Positions 169 through 57,607 of a DNA stretch of 57,607 nucleotides are shown piece by piece. The DNA lies in the NCBI GenBank assembly GCA_964624745.1, contig CAZUZK010000003.1, positions 1 to 57,607 on the forward strand. Direction: 5' to 3'. A model generated the notes under the pieces. It worked only from the letters and a program-made list of their open reading frames with translations. It did not search any database and was not told where the DNA came from. The DNA comes from an uncultured Bacteroides sp. GTDB taxonomy: Bacteria > Bacillota > Clostridia > Christensenellales > CAG-917. How positions within the stretch are numbered: the first letter of the stretch is position 1; every line of letters begins with the position of its first letter. Made by a program: the position numbers and the translations under genes.

Positions 169-858
169 TTAGACTGAAGGATATTGTATTGCGATTCCCT
201 CGTCGAAAGACGTGTCTGCAACCTCGATATTTCCCGTTCCGTATCCGTAAACGTTTTCTAGTGCAATACAGCCTACAAAAGCATATTCTCCCACCTTGCA
301 GGTGTTTTCGTTGAAGAAATAAACCTCTTTAAGATTGGGCAATGCCGCAAAGGCAAAATCCTCTATCACTCGTACGCCTTGCGGAATATAAATTCTCTCG
401 GGCAGCTGCTGAAGAGTTATATCGGCAAATATCGTGTTCGCAATGCTATACGTCTGATATTCCTCGTATTCCTCTGCGCTCAAACCGTCGATGGAAAACA
501 GTCTTTCGTCGGACACGGTGCCGTCCGAGTTTTTTCTATACCAAAACACGTCGGGTATCACAACGTCGCCGAGATTGACTCCGTACGGAGTATCGCCGCC
601 CGTATAAAACGTTGTGACCTGCGCGCATTTCGTGCCGTCCTCTGCTTCGATAACGTTTATGTTGAAATACTTTGCCCACACGTAATTGCGCACGCCGTTA
701 TAGGTGGGAGTGACGCTGGGCGCGACTGAAGACGTACCGCCCTCCAAACTGCCTATCGAAGACGTCCAAACCGCATACGAAACCCCCGTCATCGTAATTG
801 CGACGGACAACAGCACCAACGAAGCTATCAATATCGAAATCCTATATTTTCTCTTCAT
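169..858 (-). CDS. Secreted/anchored BspA-type leucine-rich-repeat protein (229 aa) with a TasA/CalY-like N-terminus; last gene of the giant-protein operon
   Basis: The start was moved to the ATG at 858 (MKRKYRISILIASLVLLSVAITMTGVSYAVWTSS); the ORF-track start at 894 is a GTG with no SD. The C-terminal half carries LRR_5/BspA-like repeats (IPQGVRVIEDFAFAALPNLKEVYF..VGEYAFVGCIALENVY). It begins 4 nt after the stop of the upstream gene. Confidence 0.7.
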   Translation of the reverse strand: MKRKYRISILIASLVLLSVAITMTGVSYAVWTSSIGSLEGGTSSVAPSVTPTYNGVRNYVWAKYFNINVIEAEDGTKCAQVTTFYTGGDTPYGVNLGDVVIPDVFWYRKNSDGTVSDERLFSIDGLSAEEYEEYQTYSIANTIFADITLQQLPERIYIPQGVRVIEDFAFAALPNLKEVYFFNENTCKVGEYAFVGCIALENVYGYGTGNIEVADTSFDEGIAIQYPSV

Positions 859-862
859 ATCG

Positions 863-1663
863 TCAAGCAAAAACACCGTTGCGCACGTCCACACCGAGCA
901 AATCGTTTTGGTCGTTCTTTATATCGAACGTAAACTCTACGCTGTCTGCGCGAAGCAAATCGGGGTTGCACTCCTCGTCTATTTTATTGAAGTATATCGT
1001 GGCTTGCACGTAATACGTTTCACCGGGGATAACAAGCATATAAAAATCATATCCCGGCTCGCCGTTTTCAAGAGTGGGTTGCACGTAATAAACACTCGTG
1101 CTGTCCTTAAACGGCGGCGTTATATTCGCAATCGGTTGCGGACTTGAGTCGATTATGTCAACCAGCGCAAGCTCGACGTTAAAATCCCCCTTGAAATCCA
1201 GCTCCGAATATTTATATCCTGCGTCCTTTATATGCACGGAGGACACCGAAAGCAAAAGCGTCTTCCTTCCGTCAATAGCGTTTGTCTCCCCGTCTTCCGT
1301 TGTAGACGATATGTCGGGAGAACCCACAAAGTTTATCGGGAAATACAGCGTTGCGGTTTTTGCGGCGGAATTTATTGTATCCGATTTTGATTTGAGGGTT
1401 TGTCCGAACGGCGCTTCCCCTCCCTTTTCAAGCACGCCGACGTTTGCGATTGCAGGCCATACGCTCACTCCGTAACCGCTTATCGTCTCGTCTATCTTGA
1501 TAACCGCCTTCTCCTGCAAATAATCCGAATCTATGGTAAATCCGCTCTCGCCGCTACTTGCGAAATTGCTAAACCACGCCGCCGTAACGCTGATTGCCGT
1601 CACCGCGACAATCAAAGCCATTACGAGAGAAGAAACGATAAGTGTGCGTTTTGTTTTATTCAT
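863..1663 (-). CDS. Secreted protein (266 aa) with a SipW-cognate-type (TasA/CalY-like) signal; function unknown, candidate fibre subunit
   Basis: An ATG at 1663 is preceded by a GGAGGAG SD. The N-terminus is MNKTKRTLIVSSLVMALIVAVTAISVTAAWFSNFASS, i.e. a basic n-region, a hydrophobic core and then an A-W-F-S-N motif like TasA (..TWAAFND) and CalY (..TFAYFSD). Its size is close to TasA. It overlaps the upstream gene by 8 nt. Confidence 0.7.
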   Translation of the reverse strand: MNKTKRTLIVSSLVMALIVAVTAISVTAAWFSNFASSGESGFTIDSDYLQEKAVIKIDETISGYGVSVWPAIANVGVLEKGGEAPFGQTLKSKSDTINSAAKTATLYFPINFVGSPDISSTTEDGETNAIDGRKTLLLSVSSVHIKDAGYKYSELDFKGDFNVELALVDIIDSSPQPIANITPPFKDSTSVYYVQPTLENGEPGYDFYMLVIPGETYYVQATIYFNKIDEECNPDLLRADSVEFTFDIKNDQNDLLGVDVRNGVFA

Positions 1664-2687
1664 TTTCTCCTCCCTCTTCGCTTATTCCGTTTATCGCAAT
1701 TTGAGCGGAAAATTCAAACACCGTGCTTGCGTAATCCATGCTTGAATAATACATTTGATTCGGATAGTTCGGATTGAACATTTTTGCAAGTTCGGCACTT
1801 GAATATACGTTTTGTGCAGTATAAACGTCCTTATCTGCGGAAAAGAACTGCATCCAAAACATTTTCTGCGGTGCGAAAACGATGTAGAAATCATACAATT
1901 CGCCGTCCGCGGAAAAGCTTTCGATTTCAAATCCGTCAACGTCTTTTATGCTGTAATTTTCGGCGATTTCGGCATCGTTGAGTTTTTTCACAAAGCCGTC
2001 GCTTCCGAACGTCAATTTGCCGTACGGCGTATACCACACCTCATCAGTCGTCGGCGAAAGATAAGCCATCGTTTTATTCGTTCCGTCCGCGGAAGCCGTA
2101 TAATTCATTGCCGTCAATCCGCTGTGTTTTTTGAAGAACCACGTGAACGCGTACGGAATATCGGGCGCGGTATTTTTATCCGCATCGTCCTCGAAACCGT
2201 ACGTTTTTTTAGGCGGTGAAATGATTATGTTGTTTCCGTTTTCGTCCTTTATCGGCATACCCTGCGCGTCTACCTTCATTTTGGAAATCTTCGCCGTGTC
2301 GAAATACATTTCTATATCAAAGGTATTTCCTTCTGTGTCGAGCGCAATCGTGTTGATAAAATAATAAGCGATATTGCTTTGATTGACTGAATTGTCCCCT
2401 GCGACCTCCTCCGTCATAAGCTTGCCGGTATTATCGCCGTCAAAACAAAATGCCGTTTGTCCGACGTATTTTATATTGTCCCAAAGTTCGCTGTCCTTTA
2501 AGTCGAACACTATCTGATGTGTTTGCGCCGTTGAAAAATCGATTTTCGTTACTCTTACTTCCCTGTCGTTTGAGAACCACGCAAAAGACGCGCTCACCAT
2601 AACAAGGGTGACCACCATAATCAAAATCGGAATCGCGATACCGAAAACCGCTTTTACCGTTCTGTTTTTTTGCGAGGCTTTGTCCAT
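1656..2687 (-). CDS. Secreted protein (343 aa) with a SipW-cognate-type (TasA/CalY-like) signal; function unknown, candidate fibre subunit
   Basis: The start was moved to the ATG at 2687 (an AGGAAAA SD lies 5-6 nt upstream). The N-terminus is MDKASQKNRTVKAVFGIAIPILIMVVTLVMVSASFAWFSNDREVRV; compare CalY ..GGGTFAYFSDKEV. The stop overlaps the next gene's ATG. Confidence 0.7.
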   Translation of the reverse strand: MDKASQKNRTVKAVFGIAIPILIMVVTLVMVSASFAWFSNDREVRVTKIDFSTAQTHQIVFDLKDSELWDNIKYVGQTAFCFDGDNTGKLMTEEVAGDNSVNQSNIAYYFINTIALDTEGNTFDIEMYFDTAKISKMKVDAQGMPIKDENGNNIIISPPKKTYGFEDDADKNTAPDIPYAFTWFFKKHSGLTAMNYTASADGTNKTMAYLSPTTDEVWYTPYGKLTFGSDGFVKKLNDAEIAENYSIKDVDGFEIESFSADGELYDFYIVFAPQKMFWMQFFSADKDVYTAQNVYSSAELAKMFNPNYPNQMYYSSMDYASTVFEFSAQIAINGISEEGGENE

Positions 2688-2789
2688 ATTTTTTCCTACT
2701 TTGACATTTTGTGTGTCATAATTCTTTGCATTTCGATTTTTGCGAGCCTTATAGTATATACAAAGCACGCCTTGGATTTATTTGCCAAG

Positions 2790-5700
2790 TCACGCAAGCG
2801 GAATAGCGTTCACGCTGACTTCAAACATCTTATCCGCACCGTTGAGGTCTATGGTATGTCCGTTCGCCTTAACCGTGCCGTAGAACGCGCCGCTGTACGT
2901 GCTATGCACGTAGCTTGAATACATCTTCACGTCGCAAGCAAGCGTAAACGTAGCAAAGCGTAGCTCTCTCAACAGAGAAACGTTTTGCTGATTTGCGATG
3001 ACAATCGCGTCGCTGTCGCTCGTACCGTGCTTCTTGCCGACAATCCAGCTTTCGTTGCCGAGGGTGTATACGCTCAAGCCTTTAAGCTCGCCCGTGGTTA
3101 CGCTCGTTTCGCCAAGCGAATACATGAGCAAATCAACGTCGATAATATCTCTCAATCTCATACTGCGACGAGCCTTAACCGAAGAGCGCAAATCCTCTGC
3201 TATATCGCGCAAATCCATATCGTTAACGACGTCGAACACTCCCTTGTTGCCGTCGTCACCCTTGCAATAATCGCTGTCGGCATAACCGCTGTTCGAGCCG
3301 AGATACAGCTCCGCATACGATTTTTTGCGCGCGCTGTCGTTTACAAAGGCAAGCCCCGAATCGCTCCTCTTCCAAACGGCGTTTTCCATATGGAACGAGT
3401 TGTCGATGCTTGCAGAAGCAAGTCCTACGCCAAACGGATTCACGTTGCCGGTGGCGTCAATCTGCATCATCGATACAGCGTTTGAAAGCTTGATATTGTT
3501 TGCCGAGCCGACAAACCCGCCGACGTTGCTACCGTTGCCGCGAACGGTTATCGTGCCCAACACGATAGCATTTGCTATCGAACGCTCTGACGAGCCGAAC
3601 AATCCGCCGACGTTTGCGGTCGCGCTCACGGTTATCGAGCCGTGGAATGTTACGTTTGAAACGGCGTCACCGTTTGCCGACGCAAGCGCGCTACCCGCGA
3701 TTCCGCCCGTGTTTCCCGCGCCTGAAAGAACGGTGAAATTGCGCAAATGCAAATTGCTAACCTTGACGTTTGCGCCGAGCACGTCGAACAATCCGACGTT
3801 TTCGCTGCCGTAGCCGACAATTTTTAGCTTGTCGATAACGTAGCCGTTGCCGTCGTACGAACCGTTAAACAGCTCGGAGGTGAGCTTAAACAAGCTTCCC
3901 TTCACGCTCACGATATTGCCTACGCCCGAGCTTGTAACGTGCTTGACGTAGCTTGCGCCCGAAGAGGAACCCCAGCCGTAGCGATGAGCAGTGCCGTCCT
4001 GACCGATAACGGTAAAGAAGCTGTTGAGCATATCCTCGTCGGCTTGAGTCATAACGCCGGAGATATCCGCGGTTTGCTTAAATGCCGAGAACATACGCTT
4101 GCTAGACGCAGGGTTCTCCTTGTAATAGCCCCAACAGCCGACCTCTCCCACCTCGGAGTTTTCATTGCGGAAGACGACGATTTTACCGTTGCTGTCATTC
4201 TGAAGCTCCTCGAAATATCCGTCCCAGTCGCTGTAGCCGTCGGGCATACCGATGTTGTTTGTGTATTGCGCCTGCGTTGCCAACAACTCGAAGGTGAAAT
4301 CGGACTTGATAATCTGCGTAAATTCGGGATTGTCGCCGTCCTGACTTGCAGTCCAATAGAAGGACGCGATAATCAATTTTGCAAGCGAATTGATTTCAAA
4401 CACGTCGCCTGTTTCTACAAAGTAGCCGATTGTCAGAATGGGCTGATTGCTCAAGCGATAGTTGAAATTCATACCCATATCAGGCGAAACCTTCGCTCCA
4501 AGCACGCTGCTGTTTTCCGAGCCGTAAATTACCTTGTGTCCCTTGTATACCGCAGGCTCGCCGTTGCCGTCGAGCTGCCAGCCGTTTGCAACGATAACGC
4601 TGACCGTTCTCTCTACGATGTCCTTGCTGGTACCGCTGATGTTTTCCCACTCGGTATTATACTTGTTGTCGGCGGTTGCGTAGCTTTGATATTGATGAGC
4701 ATACTCTACGCGCACCGACTTGACGGTTATCTCGATGACGACCTCGCTTGTAAGACCTTCGTTGTTTGCGCGGTCGTTCTTGTCGTAAACCGTGACCGGC
4801 GTACACGAGCCGTTCAAATAAACGCCCACGTCGTTGCTATGCTCCGCGACGACAAACTTGTAGTTGCCTGCCTCGTTGCCCGAAATCCTAAATTCGAGCT
4901 TCTTGTAGTAACCGCTTCCGACGTAATAGTTGCCCTCGGAATCGACGCAAACGTTGTTGACGTACTTGTCGAGCTTGTATCTTTGAGAGCGCGTGCTGTC
5001 CGCTTCGACGTAATTTGCATACACCGTCACGTCGTCCGTGCCGTAGAAGCCGGATACGCTGAAGCCCTCGCCGCTTGTGTAAATCTGGCTCTTTGCCGTC
5101 TTCCCTTCGGTATGCTTTGCGCCGCTACCGCCGTATGACGTGCCTCCGTTATATGCTCTTGTAGCCTTGCCGTAGCGAAGCTTATCGAGCGTAATCGTAA
5201 GCATTGCGTGCGTAATTTCGCCTATGCCGTCAACCTGTTGCACGCCCGAGCCGACGTACTTGTAGTTTGTCGTATCGCCGACAAATTCATAGTTGATAAA
5301 CACAGCCTTTCCGCTTGCGACGTTTGCATCGTCGTAATACGCGGTGACGTTAAACGAGCTTATGCTCGGCGCCGAGCCTTGGTTGGTGGACGTAACCGAA
5401 TAAACGGAATTGCTGTTTGCAAGTGCGGTTGTAGCCGACGTCGTGCTGTCGTAAACCTTGCCGACGACGTTTCCGCTAGAGTATGAAACAGTTATCGTTG
5501 ACTGCTCGATTTCGTACTTCGAGCTGGTTGTATTGCCGATAATATAGTTGTCCTTGCTTGTCGCGACGCCCTCGTTGGTTGCCGGCGAGATGCTAAAGGA
5601 CACAACGCTCATAAAATAATCCTTGCCGACGTTCGTTTGCTTGCCCGAAAGCGTAAGCGTCAAAACGTCGTTGCCGAGAGCGTGAATGGTTGCGCTGTCC

Positions 5701-14700: not shown

Positions 14701-17700
14701 ACATAGCGTGACGTTGAAGAGGTGACGGTTTGGTTGGTAAGCGAAATACTGCCACTTATCGTACCCGACTCCATACGTCCGACAAGACCACCGACGTACT
14801 CGGTTGTGCCCACTACCCTTGCGTTGTTGACGACAAAGGACATCGTGTGCTTCTCGGTTGCCAGATAACCTGCGATACCGCCGACGTATTTCGCGCCCGA
14901 AATCGTAACGTCGTTATTATCGTCGCAAGAACCGTTGAAGACGGAAAGATTTGCGTACGCCGTAAGCGAATTCGACTGATTGTTTTTCAATGCCAAACGC
15001 ACGCTCGCGCCGGCGTAACCGATTATACCGCCGACGTACTCGTTGCTTGCGTTCACGTTCGCCAAATTGAGCGTTTTGCCGAAGGGCGAAGACACGTTTG
15101 CGGTGCTTTCAAGGTTTGCAATACCCAAAACGCGTGAATACGTCGTTGACGAATTTTGTCCGTATATCAGATAATTGTACAGCATAAAGTCGGTTGACGA
15201 CACGCCGTAGCTCTTCGGAGAGGACACGATACCTGCGCCGCCGATAATACCGCCGACCATATTCGCCGCGTATATTTGCGCACTGTTTTTCAGGGTAATT
15301 GCATTGAGGAAAATAGTACCGGTAGCAACCGAATACGTGCCTGCGCTCGCCGCGACGTAGCCGACGATACCGCCAACGAAATTGCCGAGTCTCTTGGTTG
15401 ACGAACCTAATTGCACGGTGTTTTGAATTGTCTTTGCGCCGCCTGCCACATAGCTTCCGTCCGTCGTCTGCGTTGCGCTTTCTATGGTTGCATTCTCGCC
15501 GAGCATACCCACTATCGAGCCAACGATGTTGGTTGCGTCTGCAAACGTCATGGTGATTTGCTCGCCGCTGTTCCAATCGGTGTTGAACAGCAACGCGGCG
15601 CCGCTCATAAAGCCGACAAGACCGCCCACGACGTTTCCGCTACCGCTTATTTGCAGGCTTGCGCTTACAAGCGGAATTTCCTCGCCGTTGACCGTCGCGC
15701 TCTTTATAACTATATAACTGTTGTTTGTCTGATTCTTTTCTTTATAATATCCGCCGCCCTGGAAGACTCCGTACAGCACGCCTGCATAGCTTACGCCCTT
15801 AACGGTCATATACGACGTTCCGTTTGTATAGGTCGGCGCGATTGTCAATGACGAGCAGCTCGAAGCGTCCAGCCAACCGACAAGACCGCCCACGTATTTG
15901 CCCGTACTCTCGATAACGAGATTTGTTTGCGCATATCCGAGCGCCTGTGCCTTGCCGTTATCATCGCCGTTGTGCTGTGAAGCGTTCGATATACGCCATT
16001 TGCCTGCAATACCGCCAACGTAATCGACGCCCGAAACGTTTGCCTGCATCATAGCGGTGGAAAGGTCCACAAAGCCCTCGTTGCCCGTTCGCGTGTATTT
16101 GATTGTTGTAGCGTTGCCCTCTCCGATTATACCGCCGACGTAATTGTTGCCGGATATGGAATTTGCGCCGTTTGTAATCACTCTAAACGCGCAGTTTTCT
16201 ATCGTGACGCTTGTCGCATAGCCGACGATACCGCCCACGTAATTGTGTCCGTGTACGCCGCTCGCCGTGGTGGCGACGTTAATATTGTATATGCGCGTGC
16301 CGACGATATATCCGAACAGGCCGACGTAATCGGTGCTTGCATTGTCGTAGGAATAGGTTATCATAAACACGTTGTCGTCGCTACTGCCGAAGCTCGTCGC
16401 CATAAAGCTAGAGCCTGATTTTCCGATAGGCTCGAAGCCCTTTGTCTTGCTTGTGCCTTGCGACGGGGCAACGATGTCCGCGTCTATTCTGAAATAGCAA
16501 CCGTAATAGCTTCTGCCCGACGCATACGCCGTGCTTTGCGGAGCCAGCGAAAGAGTACCTTTTATAGAGTTGATTGCCTTACCGCCGTTGACAATAAGGC
16601 TCAACTGCAACAGCTGTTCGGGGTATTTTATAACGTACGGATTGGTTTTAGAACCCCAATTCGCAGAAGTGATATTTCCGCCGAAGTCGCTGTCAAGAAC
16701 GGTATAATATCTCTTCAACGAGCCTTTGAGGTTGCCCTTTGCCGCGGCATTTACGCTTGTTTTGGCGACGTGCTCGCTACCGGCGCCGATTATCGTTGCA
16801 GAGTTATTCCCCCACGTCAAATCGTACTCGTCGCCAAGGTCGAGAGCCACAACATTATTGTTGTTGAATCTCACGTAAAGGACAAAATTGTCCTTGTTAT
16901 ACGCCGTCGTCTGATATACGAGCACGTTGGGCTGTTCGCCCTCGCTCGACTGAAGCTGATAGTATCCGCTCGAAAACACCGACGTATCGAGAGTCTGGTT
17001 GCCCACGAGCATATTCGGTCCTGCGCCGAACCATACCGCGCCTGCTTTTGTTATATCGAACCGTTCAATCGTGAAGCTTGTCGTCTGACTTCCCGTGTAG
17101 TTGCCCTTGCCGCTCACCGTAAACGAATGCGTGCCGGCAGACGTCGCCGCCGAAACGTTGTCCGTATATTCGGTGTTCTTTTGCAGAGTATACCACACCG
17201 AGCCGCCGCTTATCCATTCCACCTTATAAGTTGGCGTCTGGCTTGTCGCGTTATACTCGTGCGAGCTTGTGACGGTGATTCTAAACTCGGACGCGTTTGA
17301 AATATTCTTCGGGTTTATCGTAAAAGTGAATATCTTTGTTCCCTTATAGTTGCCTTTGCCGTCGATAATCACCTTTGCGGTGTTTACGCCTGCGTTGACG
17401 TTGTTTTCGTATCTGAAATCAAATTCCGTTCCCTTGACGAGAGCATAGCTCTTCGACGTCCAATTTATGGTAGGCTCGGGCTTCTGCTCGGCGCGGTTGT
17501 AGATATACGTCGCACCCTTGAAATCCGCCGTGAAATCGCTGTCGTTGACGTTCTTCTGCTCGATTGTGAAATTGAAGGTTTTTGAATCCTTATAATTGCC
17601 CTTGCCTGTAATCGTGACGCTTGCGGTGCCTGCGTTGACGTTGTTAGCCCAGCTATACGTAAAATCGGTGCTTTCTACAAGCGTGACGTCTTGCGCCGTC

Positions 17701-20700
17701 CATTTGATAGCGGGCTTCGGCGTTTGCGCAACGCGGTTGTATACGTACGTTTGAGAGAACGTTGCCGTAAACGCGCTGTCGTTCACCGTTTTTTGCGAAA
17801 TCGTATACGTCAACGTTTCCTTTCTTCCGACAAGCACGCCGTTTATGTACAGCTTGACTTCGGTAGAATAACTGCCTACGTTCGCATTTATCGTCGGCGT
17901 TGTAAACGTTGCGGTGTATACGACGGGGCTTTCGTTGTTCAAATCGGAGCCGGGTTGAGCGAGGAAGGAAATATCCCACGTCTCCCCCTTCGTGTTGTAT
18001 ATTTTGCCGGTGCCGGCGGTGGTTTGAGTTATGTCTTGAGTGCCGACGTACACGTCGCTAGCCGTCGTTGCGGAATAATCCGCGGTGACCGAAGTCGGAC
18101 TCGGCGTGCCCTGCGAGCTTATGCGCGTTGGCTGTAAATACTTGCCGTTTTCGCCCTTTCTCGACACGAAATACTTGTTCGTTCCGATTGTCGCGACCAC
18201 CTCGACGCCGTTTATGTTATTGTCGGTTATGTTTTCCCACGTCTTCGTGCTATAAGAACTTCCGCTTATGACTATCGGCACGACCGAGCTTATCGTGCTA
18301 TCCTTTGAAAACACTCTGCCCAAGCCGCTGTCCGATGCGTTTGCCGAATCGCACGAATAAGTGACGGCGGTTTTGTATATCTGCCAAGAATTGCTTATCG
18401 TTCCGCCCTGCGCGGCGATTGCGCCTATTCTCGCGTCGCTGTAACGATAATTGATTGCGCCGCTCACACTGTAGCAATAATCAACCGTCGCCGTCGTCGA
18501 GCCGACGATACCGCCCAGATAATCGTTGCCGTCAACCGTGCTTTCAATGCTTGCGCAGTAGGTTACGTTCGCCTGCGCATAGCCGACGATACCGCCCACG
18601 TAATTTGCGTTGTCAAAATACTCTCCGCTGCTGTTCGTCGCGCTTACGTTGCCCTTGTTGTAGCAGTTTGAAACCGTGCAAGTCGTTGACGTGTAGCCGA
18701 CGATACCGCCGACAAACGTACCCGTAGGCGTTGCGCTTGCTTCGCCCGAGCCGAGCTGGTGTGCGATTGTGCCTTTTACGTTGCCCGTGTTGTGGCTCTT
18801 TTTTATGGGAGCTTGGCTTCTTCCGACTATGCCGCCCACGTCGCAACCGCCGATAACGTCGGCAGTGTTGCTTGCATTGCGAAGCTCTTTATCCGTAAAG
18901 CCGAAACAGCCGCCCACCGACGAGCCTTGCGGCGCGGTTATCGTTCCGCTATTCGAGAACGTGCCGTAATTTGAAGACGTATCGCACAGCAGACTATGCA
19001 CTTCTCCGCCGATACCGCCCGTCATGCCTCCGCCGACAATGCTCGCGCTGTTCGTCATCGTGCCGTAAAGCCGCGTGCCGCGCTCTGCAAAGCCGACTAT
19101 ACCGCCGACACAATCCGCGCCGCACACCGTCGCGCTGTTCTCGCAAGAAATCAGGGTGCTAGAGCCGTTTGAGGAACCGACGATACCGCCGACGTTTTTC
19201 GCCGTCAGCAGTTCAAATTCCGAAAACTGCATGCCCGCCGTCGCGCCGTCTACAACCGCCGCATAAGAGATGACGTACACCCAATAGTATTTGTAAGTAG
19301 CCGTTCCGTTGAGCGAAAACGACTTTCTGTAATATGACTGTTGCGGAATGTCCAAGCTTGCATTTGAATAAATCTCTTCCCAGTCGCCGTCGGACGGTAC
19401 GTTGCCTGCATTACCGCTGCCTTTATAGCTTGTAGTTTGATTGTTTGTGTTGGAGCCGTAAATTTTCACTCCCTGCGGTCTTCGGTATTTACTGCCGTCC
19501 TTATGGTCGTCGTCGCCCGTAATAAACGCAAAACCGCTGACAATCGTCTTCGGATCCGTCAGTTCGACAATAAAGCTAGCGGTATTTTTATCCGTGTAAA
19601 ACTTTGTGCCGCTGTTTCCGTCGTTTATATTGGCAAAGCCCTCATCGCTTTCCGGCTCGTGACCGTCGTACTGAACAATGCTGTAGCCGTTTGAGCTTCC
19701 GCTTAATTTTCCGCCTATACCTATAACGCCGCTGACGCTACAATTATTTATCGTCGCGTTTTTTGAATAACCGACAATGCCGCCCGTATACGTTCGCCCC
19801 TCGACGCTTGCGCCGTCAAGCTTTATATTCTCAATCGTTCCGTCCTCGATATGCCCGAATAAGCCTGCGTAATCTCCGCCTCTGACGTTGAGATTTTTGA
19901 TTTGCTTATCATTTCCGTCAACGTTGCCCTTAAAGGCGTTCGACCCGTTCCCGATCGGCGTAAACGCCGCGCTTGTCATATTGATAAAATCGTTTTGGCT
20001 GTTGCTCTTATCGGGCGAAACCTCAAAATATTGTCCTGCAAAATCCACGCCGCTATTTGTAAAATGCGATACGATGTCGAAATCCGTTCTGTTTTTCAGT
20101 TGATACTTGCTCGTTTCCGAGCCGTCTCCGGAAAGAACGTCAATCGAGTTGATTTGTACCGTATAAACAATATTGCTGTTCGCCGTACCCGAAGCGTTCC
20201 TGCCGAAAACAAACGTGATGTGTTGAGCCGAGCTAGGCGCAATTTCAAAATATACCGTAGCCGAACTGCTGCTGCTAGCTACCGTTCCTTTCTTTTCGAC
20301 AACGGTATTTGCATCCGAAACCGTGCCTCCCCAATGATTGGCGTCGTTGCTGTCGTCCTCGCTGTCATTTGCTTTATAGGTAATACTGCTCGCGCTTTTA
20401 CCCTCGTATGCGGCTACACCCATAATCGTGTTTTTTGCGCCATCCGAATTTGATGCGACAGTCAACGTATAGTTTACAACAATGTATTTTTTTGTCGTGG
20501 AGCTGGTATTTGTAAAGGAATAATCGAACGCCGCCACAAAGGACGCCTTCGTTTCCGAGCTTTGCGTATATGTCAAAGTCCGCGTGTTATATGTATATTC
20601 TAATGTGCCGTCCGCTTCGTTCCATGACGATGACAATGTTTTTTTCTTGGTGTGATACTTCCACGTTGCGGTCTTATCTGCGGACGCTAAGCTAACCTCG

Positions 20701-20966
20701 TTGCCCAAACTACTCCATTCCGTATCGCCAATCTTATCGCCTTTATTTCTTGTGTATCTACCCACCGCGCTGACGGTTATATCGCTAGAATAGCCGGCGT
20801 CGGCAACGTTGTTTTGAATAATTCCGCTTTGTTGCAAATTATCTTCTATGTCAAAAGCGACGGAAAGCGTGCCGACAAGCACCAGAACGAACAACACGAC
20901 AAACGCCGCCGCGCTTGTTATGCGGCTTGAAAGCTTGCGTATATTTGTCGCTTGTTCTCTTCTCAT
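2790..20966 (-). CDS. Giant (about 6,058 aa) extracellular GLUG-motif / MBG-repeat protein with an N-terminal signal-anchor; putative adhesin
   Basis: This is a single uninterrupted 18.2-kb frame. Dozens of GLUG-type strands are present (..VGGIVGY.., ..VGGLVG.., ..IGGSIG..; for example 9601-9640 encodes VNFVGGSIGYVAK). Each series is preceded by a module head of the form F.G.fdGnG..I.nL. Two arrays of MBG/YDG-type Ig-like repeats and one discoidin-like insertion are annotated separately. The likely start is the ATG at 20966 (MRREQATNIRKLSSRITSAAAFVVLFVLVLVGTLSVAFDIED), preceded by GGGAAAA. The ORF-track start at 21146 would run through the divergent csoR promoter. There is no LPXTG, SLH, dockerin or C-terminal TM segment. 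Confidence 0.85.
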   Translation of the reverse strand: MRREQATNIRKLSSRITSAAAFVVLFVLVLVGTLSVAFDIEDNLQQSGIIQNNVADAGYSSDITVSAVGRYTRNKGDKIGDTEWSSLGNEVSLASADKTATWKYHTKKKTLSSSWNEADGTLEYTYNTRTLTYTQSSETKASFVAAFDYSFTNTSSTTKKYIVVNYTLTVASNSDGAKNTIMGVAAYEGKSASSITYKANDSEDDSNDANHWGGTVSDANTVVEKKGTVASSSSSATVYFEIAPSSAQHITFVFGRNASGTANSNIVYTVQINSIDVLSGDGSETSKYQLKNRTDFDIVSHFTNSGVDFAGQYFEVSPDKSNSQNDFINMTSAAFTPIGNGSNAFKGNVDGNDKQIKNLNVRGGDYAGLFGHIEDGTIENIKLDGASVEGRTYTGGIVGYSKNATINNCSVSGVIGIGGKLSGSSNGYSIVQYDGHEPESDEGFANINDGNSGTKFYTDKNTASFIVELTDPKTIVSGFAFITGDDDHKDGSKYRRPQGVKIYGSNTNNQTTSYKGSGNAGNVPSDGDWEEIYSNASLDIPQQSYYRKSFSLNGTATYKYYWVYVISYAAVVDGATAGMQFSEFELLTAKNVGGIVGSSNGSSTLISCENSATVCGADCVGGIVGFAERGTRLYGTMTNSASIVGGGMTGGIGGEVHSLLCDTSSNYGTFSNSGTITAPQGSSVGGCFGFTDKELRNASNTADVIGGCDVGGIVGRSQAPIKKSHNTGNVKGTIAHQLGSGEASATPTGTFVGGIVGYTSTTCTVSNCYNKGNVSATNSSGEYFDNANYVGGIVGYAQANVTYCASIESTVDGNDYLGGIVGSTTATVDYCYSVSGAINYRYSDARIGAIAAQGGTISNSWQIYKTAVTYSCDSANASDSGLGRVFSKDSTISSVVPIVISGSSYSTKTWENITDNNINGVEVVATIGTNKYFVSRKGENGKYLQPTRISSQGTPSPTSVTADYSATTASDVYVGTQDITQTTAGTGKIYNTKGETWDISFLAQPGSDLNNESPVVYTATFTTPTINANVGSYSTEVKLYINGVLVGRKETLTYTISQKTVNDSAFTATFSQTYVYNRVAQTPKPAIKWTAQDVTLVESTDFTYSWANNVNAGTASVTITGKGNYKDSKTFNFTIEQKNVNDSDFTADFKGATYIYNRAEQKPEPTINWTSKSYALVKGTEFDFRYENNVNAGVNTAKVIIDGKGNYKGTKIFTFTINPKNISNASEFRITVTSSHEYNATSQTPTYKVEWISGGSVWYTLQKNTEYTDNVSAATSAGTHSFTVSGKGNYTGSQTTSFTIERFDITKAGAVWFGAGPNMLVGNQTLDTSVFSSGYYQLQSSEGEQPNVLVYQTTAYNKDNFVLYVRFNNNNVVALDLGDEYDLTWGNNSATIIGAGSEHVAKTSVNAAAKGNLKGSLKRYYTVLDSDFGGNITSANWGSKTNPYVIKYPEQLLQLSLIVNGGKAINSIKGTLSLAPQSTAYASGRSYYGCYFRIDADIVAPSQGTSKTKGFEPIGKSGSSFMATSFGSSDDNVFMITYSYDNASTDYVGLFGYIVGTRIYNINVATTASGVHGHNYVGGIVGYATSVTIENCAFRVITNGANSISGNNYVGGIIGEGNATTIKYTRTGNEGFVDLSTAMMQANVSGVDYVGGIAGKWRISNASQHNGDDNGKAQALGYAQTNLVIESTGKYVGGLVGWLDASSCSSLTIAPTYTNGTSYMTVKGVSYAGVLYGVFQGGGYYKEKNQTNNSYIVIKSATVNGEEIPLVSASLQISGSGNVVGGLVGFMSGAALLFNTDWNSGEQITMTFADATNIVGSIVGMLGENATIESATQTTDGSYVAGGAKTIQNTVQLGSSTKRLGNFVGGIVGYVAASAGTYSVATGTIFLNAITLKNSAQIYAANMVGGIIGGAGIVSSPKSYGVSSTDFMLYNYLIYGQNSSTTYSRVLGIANLESTANVSSPFGKTLNLANVNASNEYVGGIIGYAGASVRLALKNNQSNSLTAYANLSVFNGSCDDNNDVTISGAKYVGGIAGYLATEKHTMSFVVNNARVVGTTEYVGGLVGRMESGTISGSISLTNQTVTSSTSRYVGTNYVGGLVGYTHNGEIFDSISTGFDFSTTSDTRGGVLGYGVNPTIENSWTIYVAQSGSDYSDISKNDRGSYVAVDDACDVNLTYEELALATSLKTDSSQDSIQGKLCFKLNVPGNNQQLVFYAADGNDAVTTNTVDSGMLGFNSHNNTVTITLALDADSMLAYATDIKFVNVKAYTTGSQTSGEANAEESYRHPSNATSLYVPQVTKAEYNGPNNAVSLIQANIYYDWNGALVLVGSATQTANKDGYLIGSYNKTFTAGSSADTPITISTQAEWDEFAWLIYTGQNDFNGQYIKLLAENIRVYYSASHNGHNFASETTPNASSSDTKNATSNLGYNFAGNIAQGAESMANVTVSGVDYTGINKVTPSFKGIFDGNGKTITISVGETTAVVANRISVFPNAQSATFKNLTIAGVINTYDNSAGTTTNNKIYYNAGSHLAGFVGKPFGRLTFNNCVSATNITGYSVIAGIAGYSTSSATISMTACVNKGNITSLEGSQWIKETGQNIGYPKMFTYGTGGLVAYATSSITIDSCLNTGDVIGKANVGGLIGSVSGTSSSTTALTIESSANTGYIEANELNPFNSSDNTKKAGNVWSRVGGLVGSVNEYAYAVIRSSYNTGDVRGYGSIAGGLVGILGGLADGKKPHQTITYNPSKIYYSYNTGTVSVGMYDASTGFGYGMIMIGLSYVNFNGTDVGGLVGVAVNVDINYCYNLGTVKGYGGVGDLFSWQTRQGGIVGEVATDSSNITIDVDIKNSYNAGYVQILEANDSEGKFSADIVGFIDSADMGDKVYVENCYGVANNIQNYVSKKIKYYTGWNTTENGDSGKIRAGTSLATVADLTAVMTSNGTLRPTSVNTAGTAVSLWSASVQALNDDAAYENGTAAGYVYVYGCLPQLSVFAVDTYNGLSMRSKVFGKNIYGEYEEDAHEAGSQSSPYVVKDGIDLLGVSALSNLGYPFDGKYIEVANGKNNITTDKSLSAVTAKTIKLPLDSVTSGTYSLESSEMYKSSSAYGAKCTQTGKSYHLLTNGAIGRDNPQNTDSTATAYVKWLNRNYGYDGDSGSSITDVTFARRNFITIGASNVFEGSFSGKQGESDNTQILDLRVLGYDKNKVYAGLFGRVEGAYVGYVSVTGRVEAYITDNGGTSIVGSIAASVGGKSVIDHCNAGVGDKLYNSASTHEIVLYSCGKAKTHTPVGNLNTYTGGIAGEINTAIGTNYIAGTTSTIKNCVIVDARINSKRSRTGGIVGYASNNADAKIGNNKIYVSDNRVERATIQTISNRDNSSAKTLGKHIGGIIGYSNDNTTLFISGCEVGTDTNPLTYDSSAATIAEMTSVAYNSEIGAAQKQVLITGETCIGGIAGIMPNSINEIVDCSVNKSTLIARDDEWGTIENDPNYGTAIGGIVGFTTHNDTVNAVTTTFSGRIVFDGTILIAKGMDTDNGDVTNVGGVVGDMGAGASIASGAIINVTGNIVIDDSIDRIKNLGGVAGRTRGVAFSGRLTVNPTITAINADNMGGFIGTNESTVDILSDNTVISIGCVLSGKSEVGGFIGLNAAGATLNMGANDYSGVTYEKRLSITIETGANIEASEDNVGGIVGKNEGAETQDGTDGIVNIVKGTFVNNGDLNGRNNVGGIVGLNDGEMFTGGGTGSEEVRRLTITNEGNVRGNNYIGGSIGKLNKGSIAGEFTNNGSVTGVNFVGGSIGYVAKTASVTVPTDNPVPTVFVNSGNVTSTGAYIGGSIGILLGSIAGYDNNSKVEFTNSGRVTATGYVGGSIGVLAGSMTYAQFISSASNMQVAAVNAVGGSVGIIGVPEPLKSDSDNIPLDGTALDVSISIRNTHFEAGGTLTANPDSAAIENAKNADETKWGGIGGAIGVIGDSSNGFNGGSDWSNNTYYAVGNVTANGVYNVGGIVGLIKASGISINNMLAYNTTVTGAKNVGGIVGYAYGSNIEIKSAFAIEGNFVATVSDVGGIVGKANSTTDATTSYWVKGYENAVIAGSNVNNLQQTLGKYEVISETYTNNGNAETITFTQALCGTDKDVSGAIYSTPTEYYKAVGEHRVGGVTVSESDVTDLTWAMYFAKYHSGSSFTNGAWVKPLNNPTYSTGANDGSTGWYFVYANDNMSASSVSDTSIGKVNAEHTDARGNNIASSVYWKRIANAYSASEREAGKDTETLYSTIVQDGGSPQSSVLYATAMAAGKNSGYYMYIESSGSQKPSAIKDESVTTGLFYISIATINSADSAKIAKNVAVYYRTIAKGSALTYNSYERYAPIGLTDAENKSIEFRQNVVANESYADTYCYKAVDGSDTVLSATKPGNYKSAIEVYYYDRNGNPSVVGGIVVDWTISYRGLEAVADDVAGEYGKDECQATLTISNIAPKDKSNITFDVAIKTFEGSNIANATDLVTFKWNGSSCEAVKGADTYGIEIVSAQMQVYSNLADLGSTKETISDSNTYKLVVGIKFVNAKNYLIVPELTNKKDCYTELDKMCKVIVTPATLRIKLGAGYDNQSAIFDNSLYSRSWVVDGIVTKEGYNDTMAVLAAFSPRFVAQIKNSNNDNDYALSSFDLFDTNGILGTSSAVECNSALSGNRVSNVSVRTSINSHSFDVSGMRLVGNYYLTFASGQQGNYKLDTSVSPKFSISNNAITLSWTKQDSSGSHVYDGQKTGKLIATFEVLTDTGISDFVAFLKKYYSATLNNVKADNFVSVNSKKATCTFTTAVDAKTYTAKLELTDWAKDNLIDCSAESSEAQYIITKRPLSVTFADHKGATLNASGKTYVYNTEHQGLSQFTVSGLVANDKVEIVCGGKTYSVTSSSPSATVTTQTVDYKDGGYSVTASMGSGARSSNYKLNGTYTAKWTIAKKALTLSGLKDGSAIYDAKSHTPSIDLSDNGSNIAQNADGSFNFGRDMIFVNYKVNDKSEATAFVNAGEYVVSISSKAFEARRNGVDVSNNYDVTGTGSATFTISAREISLTWTSSPSSFVYYYGRYAGFTVSGASYKVSALSSPVVTSSTVDSATIHALGNDVLTLTLSGKQTNVGKDYFMSVVSFSISPATNEGVATSKDNYIIGNTTSSKYEIEQSTITVSYSSGNVVGKVYDSTTSATTALANSNSVYSVTSTNQGSAPSISSFNVTAYYDDANVASGKAVFINYEFVGDTTNYKYVGSGVQQVDGIGEITHAMLTITLDKLRYGKATRAYNGGTSYGGSGAKHTEGKTAKSQIYTSGEGFSVSGFYGTDDVTVYANYVEADSTRSQRYKLDKYVNNVCVDSEGNYYVGSGYYKKLEFRISGNEAGNYKFVVAEHSNDVGVYLNGSCTPVTVYDKNDRANNEGLTSEVVIEITVKSVRVEYAHQYQSYATADNKYNTEWENISGTSKDIVERTVSVIVANGWQLDGNGEPAVYKGHKVIYGSENSSVLGAKVSPDMGMNFNYRLSNQPILTIGYFVETGDVFEINSLAKLIIASFYWTASQDGDNPEFTQIIKSDFTFELLATQAQYTNNIGMPDGYSDWDGYFEELQNDSNGKIVVFRNENSEVGEVGCWGYYKENPASSKRMFSAFKQTADISGVMTQADEDMLNSFFTVIGQDGTAHRYGWGSSSGASYVKHVTSSGVGNIVSVKGSLFKLTSELFNGSYDGNGYVIDKLKIVGYGSENVGLFDVLGANVKVSNLHLRNFTVLSGAGNTGGIAGSALASANGDAVSNVTFHGSITVSATANVGGLFGSSERSIANAIVLGTITVRGNGSNVGGFVGSANNIKLSNAVSMMQIDATGNVNPFGVGLASASIDNSFHMENAVWKRSDSGLAFVNDSARKKSYAELYLGSNSGYADSDYCKGDDGNKGVFDVVNDMDLRDIAEDLRSSVKARRSMRLRDIIDVDLLMYSLGETSVTTGELKGLSVYTLGNESWIVGKKHGTSDSDAIVIANQQNVSLLRELRFATFTLACDVKMYSSYVHSTYSGAFYGTVKANGHTIDLNGADKMFEVSVNAIPLA
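4420..7750 (-). repeat. Second, longer array of divergent MBG/YDG-type Ig-like repeats in the C-terminal third of the giant protein
   Basis: The array shows recurrent ..(V/I)YDG/YNxxxH..t(v/f)sG...(n)d...v......aG.Y.v....... units. Examples:
- HVYDGQKTGK at about 6731-6770
- YVYNTEHQGLSQFTVSG at about 6361-6420
- AIYDAKSHTP at about 6080-6120
- KVYDSTTSATT at about 5430-5460
- RAYNGGTSYGG at about 5120-5165
- NEAGNYKFV at about 4861-4890. Confidence 0.5.
17050..17900 (-). repeat. Three tandem MBG-type (YGX/NxxNAG..GKGNY) Ig-like repeats within the giant protein
   Basis: The repeated protein units are:
- ..YVYNRVAQTPKPAIKW..FTYSWANNVNAGTASVTITGKGNYKDSKTFNFTIEQK
- ..YIYNRAEQKPEPTINW..FRYENNVNAGVNTAKVIIDGKGNYKGTKIFTFTINPK
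- ..HEYNATSQTPTYKVEW..YTDNVSAATSAGTHSFTVSGKGNYTGSQTTSFTIER
The shared DNA core cctgcgttgacgttgtt occurs at about 17389 and about 17629. Confidence 0.65.
19200..19680 (-). other. Discoidin / F5-8 type C-like (galactose-binding-like) domain inserted between two GLUG strands of the giant protein
   Basis: The translation is FANINDGNSGTKFYTDKNTASFIVELTDPKTIVSGFAFITGDDD..RRPQGVKIYGSNT..DWEEIYSNA..YKYYWVYVISY..MQFSEFELL. It is flanked by YTGGIVGYSKN.. upstream and ..AKNVGGIVGSS downstream. This pattern (..DG...TkW, wi.v.L, p..v.iygSn, W..i, .E.el) is typical of F5/8 type C carbohydrate-binding modules. Confidence 0.55.
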
Positions 20967-21071
20967 AAATTTTCCCACGTACACGCGCATTTTGCGCATT
21001 TTATATATTTTATAATATATATACGATTTGCACAAGATTTTTATTGGATTTCTTTCATATTTTTTTAACCC

Positions 21072-21100
21072 TTGACATTTTCCGCAATAAGTCGTATTAT
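21072..21100 (+). promoter_or_regulatory. Consensus sigma-A promoter of csoR-copA
   Basis: TTGACA (21072-21077), an exact 17-nt spacer, then TATTAT (21095-21100). Confidence 0.8.
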
Positions 21101-21106
21101 TTTTGC

Positions 21107-21123
21107 ATACCCCCTCGGGGTAT
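21107..21123 (+). promoter_or_regulatory. CsoR operator (GC-rich inverted repeat)
   Basis: ATACCCC-CTC-GGGGTAT is a perfect 7-bp inverted repeat with a 3-nt spacer. It starts about 7 nt after the -10 element and lies 14 nt before the GGAG SD of csoR. It has the same TACCC..GGGTA architecture as the B. subtilis copZA operator. Confidence 0.8.
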
Positions 21124-21148
21124 ATTATACCACTACGGAGAATCAATT

Positions 21149-21463
21149 ATGAACAACTCAAACGACTGCTGTGCGGTATGCGCAAAGCATAAGCACGTTC
21201 CGCGCGACGACAAAAATCTCAAAGCCCTGCACTCTCGGCTTAACCGCGCGATAGGTCAGCTCAACGGCATAAAGAGTATGCTTGACGACAACCGCTACTG
21301 CGGAGATATTCTCATACAGCTTTCCGCCGTACAAAGCGCGCTTCAAGCCTTCGGGTATATGATTTTGTCCGATCATCTCAACACCTGCGTCGTCGAAAAC
21401 GTGCTTGACGGCAACGTACAAATTCTCGACGAAACGATTGACCTCATCAAAAAATTGAAATAA
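21149..21463 (+). CDS. csoR: Copper-sensing transcriptional repressor CsoR (104 aa)
   Basis: An ATG at 21149 with a GGAG SD at 21137-21140. It contains ..LHSRLNRAIGQLNGIKSMLDDNRYCGDILIQLSAVQSALQAFG..LSDHLNTCV, i.e. the CsoR/RcnR fold with the C-H-C copper ligand pattern. Confidence 0.9.
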   Translation: MNNSNDCCAVCAKHKHVPRDDKNLKALHSRLNRAIGQLNGIKSMLDDNRYCGDILIQLSAVQSALQAFGYMILSDHLNTCVVENVLDGNVQILDETIDLIKKLK

Positions 21464-51740: not shown

Positions 51741-51822
51741 AATTTTCCTCATGCGACGCACAAGTGCGGTCGCGTTTTTCTTTTTGTAATCGGTTCTTGC
51801 TTAAGCGCAAGATATTTCGGGA

Positions 51823-57458: not shown

Positions 57459-57607
57459 AATACTCCTGCCCGATGTATATGTCGATGCGAAATATGCCCA
57501 ATCGTATCCCAAAGTCTGCATTAGACGCGACCGCCGTATTTCGCCCTATTTATCACACATTTTCCGACCACTGTCAACCCTTTTCGCACATTTTGTCGAA
57601 ATTTGTC

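Follow-up and report, generated by a model that had tools for sequence, protein, structure and literature searches.

The DNA considered here, positions 1 to 57,607 of contig CAZUZK010000003.1 in assembly GCA_964624745.1 (the window, by which that whole stretch of 57,607 nucleotides is meant), carries at its left end four co-directional genes that form a conserved operon of uncultured gut Clostridia, namely Christensenellales-like metagenome-assembled genomes (MAGs). The first gene encodes a giant protein of 6,058 amino acids (aa) with GLUG modules; it is followed by genes for two predicted β-sandwich proteins of 343 and 266 aa and by a gene for a 229-aa protein with leucine-rich repeats (LRR). 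Judged from profile comparisons, a homologous leader of the SipW-dependent (TIGR04088-like) class is shared by the 266- and 343-aa proteins; it is this class that in Bacillus subtilis precedes the donor strand of TasA. What the operon encodes is tentatively read as a secreted or surface complex whose SipW-class leaders would be cut by a peptidase acting in trans and whose small proteins would serve, through donor-strand-like assembly, as base or adaptor of a giant fibre, a reading that is preferred here while falling somewhat short of probable.

All four genes lie on the minus strand, within the open reading frames (ORFs) 2790..21146, 1656..2768, 863..1663 and 169..894 of the window's ORF list, and translation from the ATG codons at 20966, 2687, 1663 and 858 gives products of 6,058, 343, 266 and 229 aa whose N-termini match exactly those quoted in a preliminary description of this DNA. 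The giant has an alternative ATG at 20990, 8 codons further upstream, which yields the 6,066 aa of the public gene call. The genes for the 343- and 266-aa proteins overlap by 8 nucleotides at 1656/1663, with GGGAGGAG, a strong Shine-Dalgarno sequence, directly 5' of the ATG, and a gap of 4 nucleotides at 863/858 separates the genes for the 266- and 229-aa proteins; the co-directional, translationally coupled arrangement first described is correct in both particulars. The features on which the argument rests are the following.

2790..20966, minus strand: giant GLUG-repeat protein, 6,058 aa (6,066 aa from the ATG at 20990), from the ORF and Pfam.
20856..20966, minus strand: leader of the giant, aa 1-37, with n-region, 22-aa hydrophobic core and G32-x-x-S35-V-A37, then F38-D-I-E-D, from the sequence.
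19725..20111, minus strand: first GLUG-type module of the giant, aa 286-414, from blastp.
2847..4085, minus strand: conserved C-terminal core of the first gene, aa 5628-6040, from blastp against the 594-aa protein of locus L035.
1656..2687, minus strand: 343-aa secreted β-sandwich protein of a family without Pfam domain, from the ORF, Pfam and an AlphaFold 2 model.
2565..2687, minus strand: leader and junction of the 343-aa protein, aa 1-41, with predicted cleavage S34-F-A36 / W37-F-S-N-D, from an alignment of 55 sequences.
863..1663, minus strand: 266-aa secreted β-sandwich protein of a small family without Pfam domain, from the ORF, Pfam and an AlphaFold 2 model.
1565..1663, minus strand: leader and junction of the 266-aa protein, aa 1-33, with predicted cleavage T27-A-A29 / W30-F-S-N, from an alignment of 46 sequences.
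1493..1576, minus strand: conserved segment at the start of the mature 266-aa protein, aa 30-57, from the alignment and low model confidence.
169..858, minus strand: 229-aa secreted protein with a BspA-type LRR (LRR_5) domain, from Pfam and a family alignment of 54 sequences.
760..858, minus strand: leader and junction of the LRR protein, aa 1-33, with G25-V-S-Y-A29-V-W31-T-S33, from the alignment of 54 sequences.
21124..21153, minus strand: promoter-like site TTCATA-18-TATAAT with a TG element, about 160 nucleotides upstream of the giant's ATG, from a consensus scan only.

A scan of one genome per GTDB species found the cassette at 33 loci, all of them from uncultured gut Clostridia, and a metagenome scan added 26 more; the loci bear labels such as 'Christensenella sp. 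UBA...', CAG:475, CAG:238, UMGS... and Hadza MAGs. The order of large ORF, 343-like, 266-like and LRR-like gene is kept in every locus with enough sequence, including loci L061-L063, where the 266-like protein is only 24-26% identical to that of the window, and on long contigs a giant of 6,111-7,062 aa is followed by the 343-like, 266-like and LRR_5 genes. The co-occurrence in related genomes that the preliminary description had suggested examining is thus borne out as synteny. The length of the first gene's product varies widely: it is 594 aa at L035, the genome locus that has diverged furthest, and reaches about 7,000 aa elsewhere. These data bear on an alternative in which the four products are ordinary independent secreted proteins, with leaders made alike by duplication or recombination of a signal peptide, no co-assembly and no special peptidase: the genes are translationally coupled, and in 33 species their order holds without exception while identity falls from about 50% to about 25%, which speaks against independence. 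For some cassette loci (L015, L016, L021, L025 and L007) the bin carries the name Phascolarctobacterium succinatutens, Butyrivibrio crossotus, 'uncultured Bacteroides sp.' or Anaeroplasmataceae; as the cassettes themselves have sequences characteristic of the Clostridia clade, wrong binning or labelling of these MAGs is probable.

The leaders are where conservation is concentrated. An alignment of 46 sequences of the 266-aa family shows no variation in 20 of its first 33 columns, as against about 20% of the remainder, and among relatives at 20-30% identity nothing in the whole protein stays invariant except A29, W30, F31 and P70, so that the AAWF junction persists even there. Invariant positions of the 343-aa family (55 sequences) are P20, L22, T27, M30, V31, S34, F35, A36, W37 and F38, and G25, A29, W31 and S33 are conserved in at least 90% of the LRR family (54 sequences). 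In the β-sandwich proteins the leader, cytoplasmic n-region included, is roughly three times better conserved than the mature parts, and the leader together with the first 30 or so mature residues stands far above the rest of the protein. The hydrophobic stretches of the four N-termini measure 21-24 residues. Each of the four junctions places Gly at -5 or -6 and a small residue at both -3 and -1, which is the arrangement of a type I signal-peptidase site; a similar G-x-S-x-A / aromatic junction is seen in the LRR protein and, less clearly, in the giant. The heptapeptide SFAWF(S/T)(N/D) at the junction is nearly the TFAWFTD of validated TIGR04088 proteins.

When a junction pattern, a hydrophobic stretch followed by xW[FTHIS]x, was scanned over 648 kb (the window and 37 loci), 343- and 266-like genes were matched in essentially every locus and otherwise only cassette genes, apart from a single false positive inside a CopA transmembrane helix; the LRR-like gene was matched only in the divergent clade because the pattern bars Y in the hydrophobic run. 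On this pattern of conservation the shared junction is more than chance. Invariant +1 to +4 residues, a highly conserved run of about 30 mature residues and a motif specific to the cassette in the loci scanned add to the case against independent secreted proteins, given that an ordinary signal peptide needs neither the invariant residues nor the conserved run. Two other classes of N-terminus were considered and set aside: a type IV pilin (class III signal), as there is no G|(F/M)-T-L-x-E motif before the helix, the conserved motif follows the helix and the basic n-region abuts the core; and a lipoprotein, as no cassette product has a lipobox.

Assignment of the leaders to a known class depends on how the comparison is made. 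The TIGR04088 model has a curated cut-off of 19 bits, which the positive controls pass (TasA 38 bits, P0281 31.3 bits and P0299-type proteins 19.7-29.2 bits), and the preliminary description had proposed a search with it; the window's four N-termini gave no match even at E<=10. None of 30 diverse members of the 266-aa family match the model, and 11 of 55 members of the 343-aa family do so below threshold (best E 0.015; best bit scores shown 13.3 and 14.7). For comparison at the level of profiles, nine sequences were combined into a profile of bona fide leaders: TasA, seven bona fide TIGR04088 proteins and P0317. Seven GLUG proteins have N-termini such as MNNKKATKRALLTSVMALVMCVVMLVGTTFAWFTDTASTGVNKIQAGNL; six of these and P0281 pass TIGR04088 at 19.7-31.3 bits, and P0317 has the motif and is not matched by the model. 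By hhalign the 266-aa family aligns with the nine-sequence profile at 88% (E 3e-6) and the 343-aa family at 82% (E 1e-5), as against 3% and 1.4% for the reversed profile and 0.3% for permuted leader columns, and the 266-aa family reaches 52% with TasA alone over aa 1-38. In the reverse direction, hidden Markov models (HMMs) of the cassette leaders give bona fide TIGR04088 proteins 12-28 bits and some 80 ordinary signal peptides of the same set less than 9.2 bits.

When the HMM of bona fide leaders was run blind over all 219 ORFs of the window, the 266-aa protein came first (17.4 bits, E 4e-5), followed by a lipoprotein signal (10.6 bits) and, in third place, the 343-aa protein (8.4 bits); the LRR protein ranked sixth (3.8 bits, E 0.4), and the giant fell outside the top 15. 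The preliminary description had credited every product with a TasA-style N-terminus; because the leader scores are graded across the four products, that statement is good for two proteins only, being upheld for the 266- and 343-aa proteins by the two hhalign results, weak for the LRR protein and statistically unsupported for the giant. The lipoprotein signal that outranks the 343-aa protein is a point in favour of independent secreted proteins, as are the failure to reach the curated signal model and the readiness with which the general signal peptidase I would accept A-x-A-like sites; weighed together with the conserved order, coupling and junctions, that alternative is nonetheless very unlikely. 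The reference proteins P0299, P0287, P0290, P0291, P0315, P0325, P0317 and P0281 are themselves of some interest, being 624-903 aa long with a TasA/camelysin-like N-domain, a leader ..GTTFAWFTD.. and GLUG modules, and most members of this TIGR04088-GLUG family lack Peptidase_M73 in the precomputed Pfam table.

Beyond the leaders, no likeness to TasA is detectable by sequence. The cassette proteins give no match to PF12389 (Peptidase_M73) at E<=0.1, the models for TasA (NF046066) and BsaA (TIGR04090) match none of 30 members of the 266-aa family or 55 of the 343-aa family, and mature-only hhalign against the nine-sequence TasA/M73-like profile gives 0.1-0.4%. The preliminary description had suggested both this search and a structural comparison with TasA-type folds, and neither turned up a significant relation: Foldseek of the two AlphaFold 2 models against the PDB found nothing at E<1e-3, with no TasA-type match for the 343-aa model and, for the 266-aa model, the archaeal pilin AbpA (7ueg_A) in second place at a level that is not significant (E 0.017, probability 0.28, template-modelling (TM) scores 0.20/0.26, which are lowered because the full-length models include the long N-terminal helix). 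PDB sequence searches with profiles of the 266-aa, divergent 266-aa and 343-aa families found no TasA and nothing useful, and the same search with the M73 domain of P0281 was equally uninformative.

These results bear on a second alternative, in which the operon encodes a true but very divergent TasA/BsaA fibre: the 266-aa protein, the 343-aa protein or both would have the M73 fold and polymerise through donor-strand exchange, with the giant as a tip or cargo. Leader homology, β-sandwich predictions, the second rank of 7ueg_A for the 266-aa model and the existence of proteins that join a TasA domain to GLUG modules all lend it something, as does the extreme sequence divergence for which the BsaA/TasA family, with several paralogues per operon, is known (PMC11580942). 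Set against them are the absence of any PDB-significant structural match (E 0.017 and TM 0.2 for one model, nothing for the other), the absence of PF12389, TasA or BsaA matches in 30 and 55 family members, the mature-only hhalign values, the lack of sipW in cis and the fact that the small proteins are not paralogues beyond about 35 mature residues. A divergent TasA fibre is accordingly judged highly improbable.

The relation between the two β-sandwich proteins is itself confined to the N-terminus. With leaders included, hhalign relates the 266- and 343-aa families at 82%, aligned over the leader and the first 35 or so mature residues only; with leaders trimmed, the value falls to 0.2-0.3%, with no profile similarity. 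As far as profile comparison can tell, the two proteins are not paralogues beyond the N-terminal 35 or so mature residues. Homologues number 285 for the 266-aa protein and 149 for the 343-aa protein, all of them without Pfam domains and named only 'hypothetical protein', and an HMM of the 266-aa family, searched exhaustively, matched no more than 54 representative clusters among 1.84 billion. Both AlphaFold 2 models place a β-sandwich behind a long N-terminal helix and a low-confidence linker: in the 266-aa protein (predicted local distance difference test, pLDDT, 71.6) the helix ends at A28, and in the 343-aa protein (pLDDT 80.9) it runs from residue 5 to 36, ending at A36, with low confidence over 32-46.

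What follows the helix in the 266-aa protein may be the most telling segment of the cassette. Residues 30-57, which form the mature extension, hold about 10 invariant positions in an alternating β-strand pattern (W30, F31, N33, F42, S46, L49, E51, A53, I55 and I57), and AlphaFold leaves this extension unplaced in the monomer, with pLDDT 28-37 over aa 31-60. A stretch that needs a partner in order to fold would be both conserved and modelled with such low confidence, and this model-based argument, the strongest indirect one in the analysis, suggests that aa 30-57 are of this kind. In one relative, L037 (CP091723.1, a long-read MAG of 'Christensenella sp.', 1.65 Mb), the 343-like gene at 9959-11034 is split into overlapping ORFs of 252 and 156 aa, which represents either a frameshift or pseudogene or a long-read sequencing error.

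A leader of the SipW class raises the question of its peptidase, and the preliminary description had stated that no sipW-like gene lies in the window. That statement stands: no signal peptidase turned up there among the larger ORFs checked with Pfam, and an S26-type motif scan found none in the window or in 63 related loci, with the qualification that the motif S-x-S-M-x-P...GDN is too strict and would miss the peptidase of L065 (RTDSMST). A search by phmmer with that peptidase was also empty, as taken up below. The region upstream of the first gene is covered in the window and L035 only. The L065 locus (5747-10037 of CBDRPJ010000078.1 in GCA_965345945.1) is a canonical TasA-type operon, in the order 283-aa LPXTG-anchored protein, 184-aa BsaA-like protein, SipW-type peptidase and P0315, the last being 678 aa long and combining a TIGR04088 leader with a TasA/M73-like N-domain and GLUG modules; the peptidase of this operon scores 49.6 bits with TIGR02228, just below the 51.85 cut-off, and 47.6 bits with the SipW model, at E about 1e-12. 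Because canonical operons of this type encode the peptidase in cis, the cassette differs from them.

In the preferred reading of a secreted complex assembled through its N-termini, all four products would be exported by Sec, and their leaders would be cut after the small residue preceding the invariant Trp or Phe by an ER/archaeal-type (SipW-like) peptidase encoded elsewhere in the genome. The conserved N-terminal segments thus exposed may then pair as β-strands with a partner subunit, donor-strand-like as in TasA and TapA, and the small proteins would form the base or adaptor of the giant GLUG-repeat fibre. Donor-strand assembly of a heteromeric fibre is a plausible inference. In favour of the reading count the conserved gene order, the operon structure, the leader homology, the cleavage geometry, the conserved yet unplaced N-terminal extension of the 266-aa protein, the precedent of TasA and TapA, and the absence of any other anchor, be it an LPXTG motif or a C-terminal transmembrane segment, from all four proteins. 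Several observations weigh against the reading as a whole. The curated TIGR04088 cut-off is reached by no scanned cassette protein (best 14.7 bits), other transmembrane-based models match the 343-aa family at E-values similar to those of TIGR04088, and neither hhalign nor the leader HMM finds significant similarity to the class in the leaders of the giant and the LRR protein. The mature parts are detectably like neither TasA/M73 nor each other, and Foldseek offers no significant match, with AbpA appearing for the 266-aa model only. As for the peptidase, phmmer with the L065 enzyme found nothing in the window and the cassette loci, about 1 Mb in total, and the genuine TIGR04088-GLUG protein P0315 has a SipW-type peptidase immediately upstream. 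Finally, were every one of the four leaders cut, the sequences would offer no explanation of how the products are retained at the cell.

This last difficulty is met by the main rival, in which the leaders are uncleaved signal anchors and the complex is a hetero-oligomer of packed transmembrane helices, with the AWF/VW aromatics at the outer interface and the giant held by its own helix and by its small partners. The 21-24 hydrophobic residues are of membrane-spanning length, AlphaFold 2 models the segment as one long helix, the helix and the cytoplasmic n-region (MNKTKRTL, S11, S12, T22, S25 and T27) are unusually conserved, and neither an alternative anchoring device on any product nor a dedicated peptidase in cis is found, all as uncleaved anchors would have it. 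Conservation of the leader is itself typical of the TIGR04088 class, however, whose model spans the h-region (the TasA control), the junction conforms to the -3/-1 rule and has a Gly at -5 or -6, and the similarity of the leaders to a class that is cleaved in TasA and TapA (PMC9674648) is order-specific. Uncleaved anchors are considered unlikely, while being a rival of real weight. A mixed model, in which the two TIGR04088-like leaders are cut and the giant, the LRR protein or both stay anchored, would fit the graded similarity of the leaders and is offered as speculation.

The giant itself is the least conventional member of the cassette. Pfam Glug (PF07581) matches it at 24.8 bits against a cut-off of 20.5, in 4 stretches of its first 3,000 aa, and no MBG domain is matched by Pfam at E<=0.1; of the earlier characterisation as a GLUG/MBG giant, the GLUG half is therefore confirmed and the MBG half is not. 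By blastp the GLUG module at aa 286-414 is 33% identical to aa 241-361 of P0281 (E 1.7e-16) and 46% identical over 95 aa to P0315. At the other end, aa 5628-6040 correspond to aa 134-556 of the 594-aa L035 protein (34% identity, E 9e-64), and the last 430 or so residues of the first-gene product hold 26 invariant columns in a 19-sequence alignment; this C-terminal core has no relative among PDB sequences. Given that the 594-aa L035 protein matches only the C-terminal core, the giant is best described as a leader, a huge and poorly repetitive expansion and a conserved C-terminal core. Internal repeats are few, with repeats of about 80 aa around aa 1027-1308 and one distant pair, and their scarcity rules out a simple tandem-repeat protein.

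The junction of the giant, SVA-FDIED, is the weakest of the four, and the complete homologue in its support is the L035 594-aa protein alone (..GFLFFADIKVG, with FFADIK). Scans of genome contigs and metagenome contigs with the giant's first 400 aa gave no match, and the N-termini and upstream regions of its relatives are accordingly known only for the window and L035; the first 600 aa as a homologue query brought up only GLUG-domain proteins and no orthologous giants. Nor does the giant's N-domain show similarity to the TasA/M73-like profile (hhalign 0.5%). Its C-terminus ends ..DKMFEVSVNAIPLA, with neither LPXTG nor a hydrophobic or transmembrane tail, and the small proteins end in acidic or neutral tails. 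A sortase-anchored adhesin was considered and rejected, as no product has LPXTG followed by a hydrophobic segment and a basic tail. The LRR protein is more readily placed, if narrowly: LRR_5 (PF13306) is matched at aa 154-203 with 28.1 bits against a gathering score of 27.7, a marginal pass that upholds its designation as an LRR protein, and precomputed LRR_5 matches are present in its orthologues.

The genes around the cassette give it a genomic setting. The remainder of the window is housekeeping DNA of a sporulating Firmicute, with SpoIIE, TilS, CCA-adding enzyme, RmuC and nucleoside salvage genes. A heavy-metal (copper) P-type ATPase gene at 21471-24101 (plus strand) is divergent from the giant gene; likewise at L035 a heavy-metal P-type ATPase gene (3589-5526, minus strand), beside an ArsR-like gene, lies divergently upstream of the cassette, so that this synteny is conserved between the window and the most divergent locus. 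Just downstream of the LRR gene, at 81-109 on the minus strand, is a near-consensus promoter-like site (TTGACA-17-TATACT with a TG element) directed toward sequence beyond the start of the window; neither ARAGORN nor Rfam found an RNA gene near it, both scans being empty for the window. At most loci a membrane-anchored glycerophosphodiester phosphodiesterase (GDPD) gene lies 1-4 kb downstream of the LRR gene (for example L001:13517-14635 and L003:16525-17634), a region before which the window ends, and at L003, L024, L027, L031 and L037 a lipoprotein of 670-920 aa is encoded between the LRR and GDPD genes.

Elsewhere in the window, two adjacent minus-strand genes (50370-51761 and 51823-53358) encode lipoproteins without a Pfam domain, with lipoboxes ..FTAC and ..LVAC and N-terminal regions that are alike (..LYxTANQSRxN..). 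A 963-aa surface lipoprotein (54630-57521, minus strand) with six Flg_new (Listeria-Bacteroides) repeats, LRR_5 and a weak MBG_3 is the second LRR_5 surface protein of the window; its signal is that of an ordinary lipoprotein and not the cassette leader.

The implications reach beyond this one operon. Very large unannotated surface proteins are common in uncultured Clostridia of the human and animal gut, with single protein clusters holding hundreds of members, and if the four products co-assemble, the cassette would provide a first functional handle on them. In its fullest form the proposal is of an undescribed heteromeric surface appendage, a giant GLUG fibre with three non-homologous small subunits joined by TasA-style strands and matured by a SipW-class peptidase in trans, and in that complete form it is distinctly unlikely. 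Should it hold, donor-strand assembly would be independent of the TasA/M73 fold, and the SipW-type leader together with its post-cleavage strand would be a portable 'assemble-me' tag, usable outside that fold and without a peptidase gene in the operon. Mechanism aside, the cassette can be recognised by its 343-aa, 266-aa and LRR families together with the conserved C-terminal core, of which current Pfam and NCBIfam models capture no more than GLUG and LRR_5. The preliminary description knew of no described system of this composition. Literature searches brought up nothing relevant linking SipW to GLUG or TasA to Christensenell-, and the composition is indeed new, with two Pfam-less β-sandwich families, an LRR protein and a length-variable GLUG giant and with no peptidase in cis; new, too, is the distribution of the cassette among uncultured gut Clostridia. 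As concepts, SipW-class leaders, donor strands and heteromeric operons of TasA type are already known, and the idea of a heteropolymer has precedent in operons with several BsaA/TasA paralogues, for which such assembly has been suggested (PMC11580942).

Several known systems invite comparison. Gram-negative chaperone-usher pili join a tip adhesin and adaptor subunits by N-terminal extensions, and the cassette likewise combines a large adhesin with a few small subunits that have a conserved N-terminal segment; the analogy is functional only, as the cassette has neither chaperone nor usher, belongs to a different envelope and shows no homology. The archaeal bundling pili of AbpA (PDB 7UEG), a TasA-like donor-strand filament, share a β-sandwich subunit, the second-ranked Foldseek match of the 266-aa model, whereas the match is not significant and there is no sequence similarity. 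Closer is the tapA-sipW-tasA operon of B. subtilis, which encodes the fibre protein TasA, the nucleator and anchor TapA and the peptidase SipW, where the donor strand of TasA is residues 28-38, directly after the SipW cleavage site, where TapA as a non-identical partner has the same strand, and where both leaders are of the cleaved class (PMC9674648). The cassette resembles it in the leader class (266-aa family and TasA), in a conserved segment placed after the predicted cleavage site, as is the TasA donor strand, and in giving different proteins of one operon a common N-terminus, as in TasA and TapA; it differs in having no sipW in the operon or its neighbourhood, in mature proteins that are not M73/TasA by Pfam, NCBIfam, hhalign or Foldseek, and in partners that include a multi-thousand-residue GLUG protein and an LRR protein.

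The sipW-bsaA-bsaB-bsaC operon of Clostridium perfringens is likewise from Clostridia and pairs TasA-related proteins with a large non-TasA protein, BsaC (von Willebrand A-domain), and a heteropolymer of several paralogues has been suggested there (PMC11580942); unlike it, the cassette has no TIGR04090 match among its proteins and no sipW in cis. The TIGR04088-GLUG proteins (P0299, P0287, P0290, P0291, P0315, P0325 and P0281) differ in passing the curated cut-off (19.7-31.3 bits), in their N-domains, with PF12389 on record for P0281 and alignment of the others with TasA in a TasA/M73-like pattern that the giant's N-domain does not share, and, for P0315, in having a SipW-type peptidase and an LPXTG protein in cis; the cassette, for its part, has three extra small genes. 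Nevertheless the likeness is a double one: their leader is nearly that of the cassette (..KATKRALLTSVMALVMCVVMLVGTTFAWFTD against MNKTKRTLIVSSLVMALIVAVTAISVTAAWFSN), and their GLUG modules are 33-46% identical to those of the giant; the module of P0281 begins directly behind the M73 domain, at the residue that corresponds to aa 286 in the giant.

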